64,000 bases of DNA, taken from positions 704,001 to 768,000 of the forward strand of contig CAVSIV010000006.1 in assembly GCA_963728205.1 (NCBI GenBank), given 5' to 3'. A program made the position numbers and the translations under genes. This document shows, piece by piece, positions 23,963-27,564 of the stretch. The stretch's first letter is position 1. The number at the start of each line of letters is the position of its first letter. The notes beneath the pieces are model-generated. The model did no database searches, had not been told where the DNA came from, and was given only the letters and a program-made list of their open reading frames with translations. The DNA comes from an uncultured Chloroflexia bacterium (lineage in GTDB: Bacteria > Chloroflexota > Dehalococcoidia > UBA2979).

Positions 23963-24088
23963 CGGATCGCCTGGGAGTCGGGGAGACACCGCGGTCTGGA
24001 AGGGACCCGCGCAGTATAGCGCATCGAACACCAGTTCGGGTCAGGTGCTTCAGCGATTACGGGGTTTCCGGCCGCACGGCTTCCGTCC

Positions 24089-24182
24089 TCGAAGCGGCGG
24101 GAGACATGCCGCCGACAGGACGCGGACGCAGTCCGCGGCTGGCGCCGCGCTTCTGTCGGCGGCATGTCTGCCGCCGCTTTGA
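24089..24182. repeat. REP/REPIN-like element, copy 6
   Basis: AAGCGGCGGGAGACATGCCGCCGACAG...CGCGGACGCAGTCCGCG...CTGTCGGCGGCATGTCTGCCGCCGCTT. Confidence 0.9.
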
Positions 24183-25114: not shown

Positions 25115-25594
25115 CTACCTCAGGAACGCATCACCCAGGGGCGAACGCGGCACGTCATCGCCGGCGTTCACCATGTGGTGCGCGAGCGGGCCCAGGCCGG
25201 ACAGCACCTCCGCGATCTCCTGCTCGCCGACACCCGCCTCGCGCATCGCCGTCGTGAACAGGCGCAGCCAGCGGCCGGCGGCGCGCTCGTCGATCACGAA
25301 CGGGAAGTGGCGCATCCGCAGCCGCGGGTGGCCGTAGCGCTCGCTGTAGCGCGGCTCGCCGCCGAGCCACTGCTCGACGAACAGCTTCTGCTTCTCGCGC
25401 CCGGGGCCCAGGTCGTCGGGGAAGAGCGGGCGCAGCACCTCGTCGCGCTCCACGTGGTCGTAGAAGGCGTCGACGATGCGCTCGACGGCGGCGCGCCCGC
25501 CGACGCGCTCGAACAGCGGCGCGGCGCCCTCGGGCGCGCGGGCCGGCCGCCGCGACGGCGGTGGCGACGCGGGGAGGTCGCGGGGGGAGGTCAT
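25115..25594 (-). CDS. group II truncated hemoglobin (GlbO-like)
   Basis: FERVGG..VDAFY, LFVEQWLGG, YSERYGHPRLRMRHFPF, RWL, AHHMVN. Confidence 0.9.
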   Translation of the reverse strand: MTSPRDLPASPPPSRRPARAPEGAAPLFERVGGRAAVERIVDAFYDHVERDEVLRPLFPDDLGPGREKQKLFVEQWLGGEPRYSERYGHPRLRMRHFPFVIDERAAGRWLRLFTTAMREAGVGEQEIAEVLSGLGPLAHHMVNAGDDVPRSPLGDAFLR

Positions 25595-25815
25595 GGGCTC
25601 GTCTCGTCTCCGGGGCGTCGCGCCTCGCGCCGCACGTCCGCCGTGTCGTCGCGTCGCTCGTACCCGGAGCAGGCGCGCACCGGCAGCGGCGGGTACTTCG
25701 GAAAGCGCGGGTCCGCTTCCGACCGGCCGCAGCGCAGGAACACGGAGCCGCGCGCGCTCTCGACGCGTCGCGACCACGCGCAGGTGTCGCACAGGCCGGC
25801 CGGGACGAGGGTCAC
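25591..25815 (-). CDS. small four-cysteine hypothetical protein (74 aa)
   Basis: GLCDTCAWSRRVESARGSVFLRCGRSEADPRFPKYPPLPVRACSGY; TACACT box 6 nt before GTG; ATGA overlap with the globin. Confidence 0.7.
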   Translation of the reverse strand: MTLVPAGLCDTCAWSRRVESARGSVFLRCGRSEADPRFPKYPPLPVRACSGYERRDDTADVRREARRPGDETSP

Positions 25816-25958
25816 GCACTCAGTGTAGGCGACGCGGGCTGGAGGCGTGCTTCGCGCGGCGCTCGGTCGAGGCGCCGGTCGCCGCCGGTCGCCGGGCGGT
25901 GCGCCGGCCACTGGTAGGATCGTCGTCCACGACGACGCGACGCCCGGCAAGGAACACG

Positions 25959-26171
25959 ATGCACGCCCACCTCCAGGCCGTGATGCCCTACGAGCTCCAT
26001 GGCACCCGCTACTACCAGCTCGTCTTCGTCCCCGAGGGGCAGCAGCGCCCGCAGCAGGCGCGCCTCTCGCACGACATGATCTACGCGGACCCGCGGCCGG
26101 GCGATCAGATCGAGGTGCACGCCATCCTGGGCGTCGTCGACCGCGTCGAGCGCGCCGCCGCCGCCGACTGA
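25959..26171 (+). CDS. small hypothetical protein (70 aa)
   Basis: AAGGA RBS; MHAHLQAVMPYELHGTRYYQLVF...; protein-like composition unlike the shadow frames. Confidence 0.7.
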   Translation: MHAHLQAVMPYELHGTRYYQLVFVPEGQQRPQQARLSHDMIYADPRPGDQIEVHAILGVVDRVERAAAAD

Positions 26172-26200
26172 GCGGACCGAGCACCAGGCGAGGAGCACAC

Positions 26201-27214
26201 GTGACGAACCAGCCGGCCGACGGCGAGACGCCGCCGGGCCTCCGCTTTCCCGACAGCGACGACTTCCCGACGGGCCCCGCCGTCGGCGAACCGCTCCCGG
26301 ACTTCACGCTCCCAGACCAGTCCGGCGCGCCGGTCACGTTCTCCGCGGCGCGCGGCGACCGGCGGGCGGCCGTCGTCTTTCTGCGCTCGTCGCGCTGGTG
26401 ACCGTACTGCCGCACGCAGCTGGTTCAGCTGCAGCAGCACCTGGCGGACTTCGAGGCCGAGGGCGTCGCCGTCTTCGCGATCCTGCCGGACGCGCCCGAG
26501 GCGCTGGCCGCGTTCGCGACCGAGTACGGCATCACCTACCCGTTGCTGAGCGACGCCGACTCCGCGGCGATCCGCCGCTTCGGCATCCTCAACACGCTGA
26601 TCCGGCCGGACGAGGCAATCTACGGCATTCCCTATCCCGGCACGTACATCACCGACGCGCAGGGCGTCGTCGTGGAGAAGCGCTTCTACCGCCGCTACCA
26701 GGTGCGCGACGACGTCGAGTCGCTGCTGCACGCGCGCTTCGGCGCCGCGCTGCACGCCGAGCAGGACGCGGCGGTCGCGGCCGAGTCGCCGGGCGTGCGG
26801 GTGAGCGCGGTCCTCGGCGGCAGCGAGTTCGTGTTCCAGCGGCGCGCGACGCTGTTCGTGCGGCTCGACCTCGACGCCGGTCTGCACGTCTACGGCCCGC
26901 CGGTGCCGGAGGGCTACATCGGCACCGAGGTCACCGTCGCCGGCCCGGACGGCCTGATCGTCGAGCCGGCGGCCTACCCGCCGACGCACCCCGTGCGCTT
27001 CGAGGCGCTGAACGAGACGCTGCACGTGATCGAGAGCCCCGTCGAGATCGCCGTCCCGCTCACGGCGAACATCCGCGAGGGCGACGCGGTCCCGCTGGAG
27101 ATCACGGTCCAGTACCAGGCGTGCGACGACCGCCAGTGCTTCCTTCCGCAGCGCCAGGTGCTGCAGCTCGACGTCCCGCTGGCGCCGCTGAACCGCCCGC
27201 CGCGCCGGGGCTAG
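26201..27214 (+). CDS. putative selenoprotein: AhpC/TSA (redoxin) domain with UxxC, fused to a DsbD N-terminal-like domain
   Basis: AGGAG RBS plus GTG; GEPLPDFTLPDQ...FLRSSRW-TGA(26399-26401)-PYCRTQL continues in frame to YPLLSD and C-terminal YQACDDRQCFLP. Confidence 0.82.
26408..26439 (+). promoter_or_regulatory. candidate bacterial SECIS hairpin
   Basis: GCAGCTG-GTT-CAGCTGC (26416-26432) with lower stem TGCCGC/GCAGCA; apical-loop G lies 22 nt after the UGA. Confidence 0.65.
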
Positions 27215-27220
27215 CCGTCG

Positions 27221-27470
27221 CGACGCCATCCGCCGCCGCGAGCGCCATCCGCCGCCGCGACGCCATCCGCCGCCGCGACGCCATCCGCCGGCGGGACGCC
27301 ATCCGCCGCCGCGACGCCATCCGCCGGCGGGACGCCATCCGCCGCCGCGAGCGCCATCCGCCGCCGCGACGCCATCCGCCGCCGCGACGCCATCCGCCGC
27401 ACGCCATCCGCCGCAGCGACGCCATCCGCCGGCGCGACGCCATCCGCCGGCGGGACGCCATCCGCCGCCA
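27221..27470. repeat. tandem array, 14 copies of an ~18-bp unit CGACGCCATCCGCCGCCG
   Basis: counted directly; units 15-19 bp with few variants and no spacers. Confidence 0.92.
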
Positions 27471-27564
27471 CAGCGGCGGCAGATATGCCGCCGACAGGGC
27501 GCGGACGCAGTCCGCGGCTGACACCGCCCATCCGTCGGCGGCATGTCTGCCGCCGCTGTGGCGG
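27465..27564. repeat. REP/REPIN-like element, copy 7
   Basis: CCGCCACAGCGGCGGCAGATATGCCGCCGAC ... GTCGGCGGCATGTCTGCCGCCGCTGTGGCGG. Confidence 0.9.

Follow-up and report, generated by a model that had tools for sequence, protein, structure and literature searches.

The locus described here raises the question of how a single TGA codon should be read. The locus lies in a stretch of 64,000 nucleotides (nt) from an uncultured Chloroflexia bacterium of the Dehalococcoidia (contig CAVSIV010000006.1, positions 704,001 to 768,000), and this whole stretch is called the window below. A gene for a redoxin-like protein in the window contains a TGA at the point where a redox-active Cys would be expected. 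The best explanation overall, and one that we consider likely, is that there is one gene, that it encodes a soluble two-domain selenoprotein with selenocysteine (Sec, U) at codon 67, and that the product is a proposed two-centre redox enzyme. The features of the gene that are needed first are listed below in window coordinates.

26201..27214, + strand: whole selenoprotein coding sequence (CDS); 337 amino acids (aa), GTG start, TAG stop (27212-27214), a single in-frame TGA; translated with TGA=U
26190..26194, + strand: Shine-Dalgarno-like AGGAG, 6 nt ahead of the GTG; direct sequence reading
26399..26401, + strand: TGA, very probably decoded as Sec (U67), with which the U-P-Y-C redox centre begins; from the orthologue column and the WCxxC homologues
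26408..26410, + strand: Cys70, second residue of the UxxC centre; corresponds to the peroxidatic Cys of AhpE in the alignment to 1xvw and 4xih
26282..26677, + strand: AhpC/TSA (Prx-like, thioredoxin-fold) redoxin domain, residues 28-159; Pfam PF00578, E 1e-31, 109.9 bits (cut-off 26)

Ordinary calling of open reading frames (ORFs) closes an ORF (25847..26401) at this TGA, and the next ORF of the same frame starts only from 26543. When the TGA is translated as U, the protein around residue 67 reads ...FLRSSRW-U-PYCRTQLVQLQ..., and the frame continues to the TAG. The original prediction, which was made from the letters of the window, had pointed out that the ORF track is split at this TGA, that the TGA occupies the position of the first Cys of a WCPYC motif as found in AhpC/TSA-like proteins, and that an uninterrupted frame of 337 aa results from read-through. 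The sequence confirms the split and the frame, with U as residue 67. The PF00578 match spans the TGA, and the fold of the AlphaFold2 (AF2) model extends across it as well.

Then the codon was followed through related genomes. A first set of 41 genomes, including that of the window, gave 17 full-length orthologues, the window's gene included, and a second set of 400 other genomes sampled across the phylum gave 14 further orthologues at E ≤ 1e-40, with 30-42% identity to the query. The orthologues were aligned along residues 1-337 of the read-through protein. Three weaker matches free of stops (two in the genome G019 and one in G004; E 1e-52 to 2e-55, query residues 8-283) were left out of these counts.

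Exactly one in-frame TGA was found in 16 of the 17 orthologues of the first set, and none in the orthologue of the genome G005. Across the translated loci of this set the TGA column reads W-U-P-[YF]-C; in G005 it reads W-C-P-F-C, with TGT as the Cys codon. The codon of Cys70 was TGC or TGT in all 16 close Sec forms. In the second set the TGA stood in the same column in 14 of 14 orthologues. That is, the TGA is kept in one column in 30 of 31 orthologues and is replaced by TGT in one (locus L030 of G005), and in 30 orthologues, with identities as low as 30%, the 66 residues ahead of it remain in frame and conserved. It is clear that the gene is continuous across the TGA. A search of sequence databases with the read-through protein agrees with this: among the 120 best matches, 22 are full length and carry W-C-x-x-C at the Sec column. 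Thus Sec and Cys replace each other at position 67, which is the outcome that the original prediction had proposed to look for. As an observation apart from this family, weaker AhpC/TSA-like matches with an in-frame TGA occur elsewhere (G000:C1:1138406-1139086, G001:C25:2466-2831 and G012:C34:12703-13011, among others; G000 is the host genome). Judging from their sequences, these matches in the host and its relatives may be further Prx-like selenoprotein genes.

The remaining matches of the database search bear on the possibility that the TGA is a true stop. In that case the locus would be a pseudogene, or it would encode a 66-aa peptide and a separate protein starting from residue ~75 or later. 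Standard ORF calling gives such an arrangement, many 263-aa database entries start after the TGA, and the selA gene, described below, is frameshifted in this assembly. However, the Pfam domain and the predicted fold cross the TGA, the upstream residues are conserved as stated above, and no nonsense mutation would be retained in one column across 30 genomes. Moreover, the Cys forms are continuous, and a product starting from residue 75 would be without the entire active centre. We therefore give the true-stop explanation almost no weight. The database entries themselves can be described as follows. Of the 120 best matches, 87 have their first residue no more than 12 residues past the Sec column, and 11 start further downstream. 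In a typical truncated entry the codon of Val75, as GTG or ATG, serves as the start, and the product has 263 aa. Where a source is named, the entry is a "redoxin domain-containing protein" of a metagenome-assembled genome (Dehalococcoidia or Chloroflexi). The 87 entries that start just after the Sec column are the signature of gene calls truncated at the TGA. On the basis of these sequence comparisons we consider the selenoprotein gene to be genuine and to be missed by standard annotation. No NCBIfam model reaches its cut-off on this protein, and with a dedicated profile many records of a selenoprotein-rich phylum would be put right.

The genes of the Sec machinery were found in the host genome. 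The tRNA-Sec scored 73.8 bits and was called by ARAGORN as tRNA-SeC with anticodon tca, selB scored 310 bits, and selD scored 364 bits (contig C4:155115-156053, locus L020). The host selD carries an in-frame TGA of its own, as do those of the genomes G001, G007 and G008; this codon is probably the known Sec site of SelD. Because selD carries this TGA, SelD itself is probably a selenoprotein in this lineage. The host selA was found as two matches (408 + 110 bits; contig C2:332097-333424, locus L009) in two reading frames that meet at a CTCTCTC run. Thus, of the genes selA, selB, selC and selD, for which the original prediction had proposed a search, tRNA-Sec, selB and selD are present as expected, and selA is present but split by one frameshift. 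Among the 24 relatives searched, selA was in one frame in 22 and missing in G026 (54% complete) and in G005. The frameshift of the host may have arisen in the assembly or may be a genuine lesion; of the public sequencing runs searched in order to check it, the best contained only 0.08 of the sampled words.

The genome G005, which has the Cys form of the gene, is assembled as a single contig and is 94% complete. In this genome there was no match to selA, the best selD match was 47.3 bits (cut-off 125), the best selB match was 187.4 bits (cut-off 242), and no strong tRNA-Sec was found, the best match being 49.1 bits. The corresponding values in the TGA-form genomes G001, G007 and G008 were 362-363 bits for selD, 297-315 bits for selB and 69-74 bits for tRNA-Sec. 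That is, the Cys form sits where the Sec machinery was not found, as would be predicted for a TGA that encodes selenocysteine.

These data also bear on the idea that the UGA is read as an ordinary amino acid, such as Trp or Cys, either by near-cognate decoding or after reassignment of the codon in the whole lineage. Nothing speaks for it directly, and it is conceivable only if the frameshift in selA is real. Against it, the neighbouring UbiE-type, NurA-like and small upstream genes end at TGA as an ordinary stop, so that TGA is not reassigned in the host genome. In addition, the TGA form of the gene is found together with the Sec machinery and the Cys form in a genome where no such machinery was detected, selD has an in-frame TGA in four genomes (G000, G001, G007 and G008), and a conserved hairpin follows the codon. 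We consider decoding as an ordinary amino acid to be extremely unlikely.

The hairpin lies immediately downstream of the TGA.

Stem 26416-26422 / 26426-26432, loop GUU 26423-26425, + strand: putative bacterial selenocysteine insertion sequence (SECIS) hairpin; comparative pairing

The bacterial SECIS is described as a stem-loop immediately 3' of the UGA (PMC9312934). The hairpin here, GCAGCTG-GTT-CAGCTGC at 26416-26432, begins 15 nt past the TGA, and its loop G lies 22 nt past the A of the TGA. The original prediction had given this hairpin, with an apical G and a distance of 22 nt, and the hairpin proves to be conserved in the orthologues. Six stem pairs are invariant in all 16 family orthologues with the TGA, synonymous third positions included, although the protein identity among them is 44-71%. 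The mean entropy at third codon positions was 0.28 bits in the 10-codon window from residue 67, the lowest of the gene, compared with a median of 1.145 over 330 windows; values below 0.28 bits were confined to the C-terminal tail, where they are artefacts of gaps in the alignment.

In the alignment of 30 sequences, 93.8% of the stem cells were paired, and when the 3' partners were slid by 1-3 columns the pairing was only 12-52%. Three stem pairs were changed on both sides among the 30 sequences, which was reached by 3 of 500 shuffles, and the covariation score was reached by 0 of 500. The compensatory changes were found in the outer pair (GC to CG; G159 and G311), in the fourth pair (GC to AU; G089) and in the closing pair (CG/GC). 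The first base of the loop was G in 30 of 30 sequences. The Cys-form orthologue (L030) has a different sequence after its Cys codon and is without the hairpin. The protein sequence after the centre is always [RKM]-x-Q-L-[VG]-[QE]-L in the Sec forms, whereas it varies in the Cys forms (RTHLTSFQ, RTQVIEMQ, KTQMAELQ and others), and this difference is in keeping with a constraint on the RNA that is superimposed on the coding sequence. From the comparative evidence, that is, the column kept in 30 of 31 orthologues, the pairing and the covariation, the hairpin and the TGA together are more than chance. The hairpin fits a bacterial SECIS, as far as comparison of sequences can tell. With its loop of 3-5 nt and its strong conservation, this very short hairpin can also be of use in modelling how diverse bacterial SECIS elements are. 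Taking the codon, the machinery and the hairpin together, we think it very probable that selenium is inserted at the UGA.

We next turn to the protein. The AF2 model of the full chain had a pLDDT of 94.4 and a pTM of 0.90. The N-terminal domain is closest to peroxiredoxins of the AhpE / BCP type (sequence E 5e-14, Foldseek E 1.5e-10, structural Z score 19.4-19.5); its fold matches include BcpB (5epf, Z 19.5), AhpE (5id2, Z 19.4) and ResA (2f9s, Z 14.9). Disulfide reductases of the ResA/TlpA/DsbE type also match this domain, with Z values of 11-15. In the alignment with AhpE (1xvw), the peroxidatic Cys corresponds to C70, the catalytic Thr to Sec67, the Pro to Arg62, and Arg116 to Pro146. Pro146 is invariant in the family, and the Arg column was confirmed with the entry of the R116A mutant (4xih). 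Thus, of the catalytic P-x3-T-x2-C motif and the Arg of AhpE/BCP peroxiredoxins, only the Cys is kept, as C70. Among the NCBIfam models, none reached its cut-off; the best were thiol peroxidase (47 bits, cut-off 140) and "SelL-related redox protein" (42.8 bits, cut-off 120). Because Pro, Thr and Arg are replaced, the protein is not a peroxiredoxin in the strict sense, and it is instead a redoxin of the CxxC type, here of the UxxC type.

The same data can be used to consider whether the protein is a Sec-dependent peroxidase. In such an enzyme, peroxide would oxidise U67 to a selenenic acid, C70 would resolve it, and the C-terminal domain described below would recycle the centre with electrons from thioredoxin. 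The AhpC/TSA family of the domain, the peroxiredoxins as its nearest solved relatives (AhpE and BcpB) and the alignment of C70 with the peroxidatic Cys of AhpE are in favour of this reading, and a gene for a truncated haemoglobin, which lies divergently upstream in 6 of the 17 loci of the family, gives a hint of oxidative or nitrosative stress. In contrast, three of the four catalytic residues of peroxiredoxins are replaced (by Arg62, Sec67 and Pro146), the best NCBIfam peroxiredoxin model stays far below its cut-off, and W-C-x-x-C is typical of the ResA/TlpA/CcmG-type disulfide reductases, which are matched as well. The synteny with the globin is confined to one taxonomic family and may be merely inherited. 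The peroxidase reading overlaps with the selenoprotein explanation that we prefer, since only the substrate differs, and we think that a peroxidase is rather improbable. For the selenoprotein as we read it, we regard thiol-disulfide reductase chemistry as somewhat probable.

The second half of the protein contains the following features.

26837..27169, + strand: DsbD-alpha-like (DsbD_N) immunoglobulin-like (Ig-like) beta-sandwich, residues 213-323; Pfam PF11412, E 1.4e-6, 28.8 bits (cut-off 25)
27122..27139, + strand: Cys308-x4-Cys313 pair within Q-A-C-D-D-R-Q-C-F-L-P; invariant in 63 of 63 aligned homologues

The PF11412 match covers profile positions 17-117 of 119, and its margin over the cut-off is small. 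The pair lies in YQACDDRQCFLP (residues 305-316), with Cys308 at 27122-24 and Cys313 at 27137-39; together with the two cysteines, Q306 and P316 are invariant in the same 63 homologues. The original prediction had recognized here the CX4-5C motif of DsbD N-terminal domains, and the Pfam match and the fold agree with it. The N-terminal domain of ScsB (6c29) was aligned with model residues 188-326 at Z 12.1, with a root mean square deviation (rmsd) of 2.4 Å over 126 residues. A model of the domain only (pLDDT 94.1) matched 6c29 and the DsbD-alpha domains of N. meningitidis and E. coli at E 2.5e-5 to 6e-4 (6c29, 2.5e-5; 6dps, 7.9e-5; 1l6p, 1.6e-4; also 1jpe). A plain sequence search of the C-terminal domain against the PDB gave no match at E up to 10. 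The protein has two domains, each with a putative redox pair, U67/C70 and C308/C313.

Where would such a protein act? Neither a hydrophobic N-terminal stretch nor a signal peptide was found in this protein or in 14 distant Sec forms; a twin-arginine motif or hydrophobic segment was likewise found in none of the protein, its in-frame upstream extension and the 14 distant Sec forms, and no transmembrane segment was seen in the protein. The original prediction, in which neither a signal peptide nor a transmembrane segment was evident, agrees with this. Among the 22 full-length Cys forms, 16 are without a hydrophobic N-terminus and six (P0073, P0101, P0102, P0111, P0112 and P0121) have signal-peptide-like N-termini; because of these six, exported relatives seem to exist.

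An exported protein, acting as DsbD-alpha does with CcmG/TlpA and fed by a membrane protein such as DsbD, CcdA or ScsB, was therefore considered. The DsbD-alpha and ScsB-alpha domains matched here are all periplasmic by their PDB titles, and the six Cys homologues with hydrophobic N-termini (35-45% identity) point in the same direction. However, the Sec forms and most Cys forms have no such N-terminus, and no gene for CcdA or DsbD-beta was seen in the flanks scanned with Pfam (300 of 367 open segments, ~1.5 kb per side; loci L023-L049 complete, L050 partial, L051-L056 left out). Export of this protein is thus very unlikely in our estimation. Its sequence makes a soluble, cytoplasmic protein most likely.

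Several observations weigh against the explanation of the locus as a Sec-encoding gene for a two-centre enzyme. Concerning the RNA, a single-sequence fold of 62 nt gave z = 0.08 against shuffles, so that single-sequence folding says nothing either way on the SECIS. By chance, about 4.5% of positions in the window, which has 73.5% G+C, have a comparable hairpin (a perfect stem of at least 7 bp, with a G early in the loop and at the right distance). In the 16 closest sequences covariation was not significant, 311 of 500 shuffles reaching the score; the test is uninformative there because the stem is invariant. As for the 0 of 500 shuffles in the set of 30 sequences, the shuffles ignore relatedness and this value is not a probability. 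The host genome has a loop of just 3 nt, a small size for a SECIS. The numerical limits of bSECISearch and of the published bacterial SECIS model serve here as general background. The split selA of the host, described above, belongs to the same side.

Concerning the protein, the fold matches to DsbD-alpha (E 1e-4 to 1e-5, TM score 0.44-0.65) are interleaved with unrelated Ig-like ear domains that score similarly, so that the DsbD-alpha assignment rests on the Pfam match and the Cys pair. The orthologue L039 of G004 keeps W-U-A-F-C and has a diverged C-terminal domain without both cysteines of the C-x4-C pair, and hence the second centre is not indispensable. Finally, there is no conserved redox partner beside the gene: CcdA/DsbD-beta, thioredoxin and thioredoxin reductase were not seen in the scanned flanks.

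What these flanks contained, among the 17 family loci, was an upstream globin gene in 6 and a downstream PurU in 5; MFS transporters were seen as well, and the more distant orthologues have unrelated gene contexts. In the window, the bacterial-like (truncated) globin gene lies at 25115-25819 on the - strand and is divergent from the selenoprotein gene, as in the other family loci counted above. This neighbour may say something about function, or its position may simply be inherited. Between the two genes is a 70-aa ORF (25959-26171, + strand) without a Pfam match, with 29 nt between its end and the start of the selenoprotein gene. The ORF is kept in the same place, at 63-85% identity, in 5 of 31 orthologous loci, namely those of G000 (the window's own locus L023, 100%), G001, G003, G015 and G016.

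Two kinds of repeats were also observed around the gene. A tandem array at 27214-27469 consists of ~14 copies of an 18-nt unit with the consensus GCCGCCGCGACGCCATCC; it begins on the last base of the selenoprotein stop codon and lies in the spacer before the PurU-like gene. A 114-nt element is present in two copies that are 84% identical (24068-24181 and 27447-27560), and each copy has an inverted repeat of 30-31 nt with a spacer of ~35 nt. The two copies bracket the block of the UbiE-like gene, the globin gene, the small ORF and the selenoprotein gene. From its sequence, the element looks like a REP- or MITE-like intergenic repeat.

Taken together, the working of the gene and its product may be considered as follows. 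The UGA of codon 67 would be decoded as selenocysteine by SelB and Sec-tRNA(Sec), which the hairpin inside the CDS, 15 nt past the UGA, would recruit. In the protein, the selenol/thiol pair of W-U-P-Y-C would cycle between the reduced form and a selenenylsulfide. The protein would then be a soluble selenol/thiol-disulfide oxidoreductase in which the UxxC centre trades electrons with Cys308/Cys313 of the tethered domain, and reducing equivalents would pass between the centres within one protein or a dimer. Such a relay would be akin to that of DsbD-alpha with DsbD-gamma, CcmG or DsbC, in one polypeptide and without a membrane domain. The original prediction had suggested a cytoplasmic relay from Sec to disulfide within the molecule. 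By the analogy with DsbD-alpha, we regard the chances for and against a direct relay between the two centres as about even.

A wider proposal is that there is a membrane-independent cytoplasmic relay of the DsbD type, a two-centre reductase with Sec as the nucleophile, that is widespread in Chloroflexota and nearly all hidden from annotation. We put this forward tentatively, and consider it to be on the doubtful side. If it is true, the DsbD-alpha module, which is known as a periplasmic adaptor, enters cytoplasmic redox chemistry. The fusion is of use in itself, as a natural, covalently linked pair in which the electron exchange of a DsbD-alpha-type domain with a thioredoxin-fold partner, and the contribution of selenium to it, can be considered. 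Natural Cys forms are available for comparison, and one of them belongs to G005, in which the Sec machinery was not found.

How does this gene stand among the selenoproteins already described? Selenoprotein families are defined by a conserved domain and a Sec motif (PMC13188914, PMC9312934). The family "Prx-like thiol:disulfide oxidoreductase" has pfam00578 and a UxxC/UxxU motif (PMC9312934, PMC13188914, PMC2398784), and the GOS study contained 225 "Prx-like 1" sequences (PMC2398784). In a survey of 2006 the family was recorded in Deltaproteobacteria, and three selenoprotein families were recorded in Chloroflexi (PMC1794560). In the BSepDB paper, 46-49 selenoproteins are reported for genomes of Dehalococcoidia, and the phylum is described as selenoprotein-rich (PMC13326102). 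Judged by its domain and motif, the gene is a member of the Prx-like thiol:disulfide oxidoreductase selenoproteins by the definition used in the field.

The fusion with a DsbD-like domain is a different matter. It is absent from the selenoprotein fusions listed in the available text of PMC2398784 and from the family table of PMC13188914, and in the available text of the latter review, of 2026, DsbD is mentioned only as part of a rhodanese/DsbD fusion. In the literature we found no description of an AhpC-TSA + DsbD_N selenoprotein, and BSepDB or a GOS supplementary figure may record the fusion. The class is thus known, and the DsbD-like fusion without a signal peptide seems not to have been described before. 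The original prediction, according to which Prx-like selenoproteins are known and this fusion may be poorly described, is in line with what the literature holds.

In comparison with the known Prx-like thiol:disulfide oxidoreductase selenoproteins ("Prx-like 1" of GOS), the protein has in common PF00578, the Sec position, the UxxC motif and the existence of Cys homologues; the extra C-terminal DsbD_N domain (~150 aa, with its invariant Cys pair) is what sets the protein described here apart. The closest solved structures to the N-terminal domain are AhpE and BCP (PrxQ), for example 1xvw and 5epf, with an rmsd of ~2 Å over ~150 residues. The difference is that their centre is T-x-x-C, whereas that of the protein here is U-x-x-C.

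The C-terminal domain shares with DsbD-alpha and ScsB-alpha (1l6p, 1jpe, 6dps, 6c29) the PF11412 profile, the beta-sandwich fold and a Cys pair near the C-terminal strand. The spacing of the pair is C-x4-C here, in contrast to C-x5-C in E. coli DsbD-alpha. By the titles of the PDB entries 1vrs, 1z5y and 1jzd, DsbD-alpha binds the thioredoxin-fold proteins DsbD-gamma, CcmG and DsbC, whereas in the present protein a thioredoxin-fold domain is on the same chain. The protein also differs from DsbD-alpha and ScsB-alpha in having no signal peptide and no membrane beta domain, and in the presence of Sec in the partner centre. Among solved structures with two domains, the nearest analogue is the C-terminal part of M. 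tuberculosis DipZ (5cyy), in which a thioredoxin-like domain is followed by a beta-sandwich; it was aligned with model residues 10-335 at Z 11.4 over 168 residues. However, this alignment has an rmsd of 3.6 Å and takes in only half of the residues, and DipZ is joined to a membrane DsbD-like domain and is without Sec.

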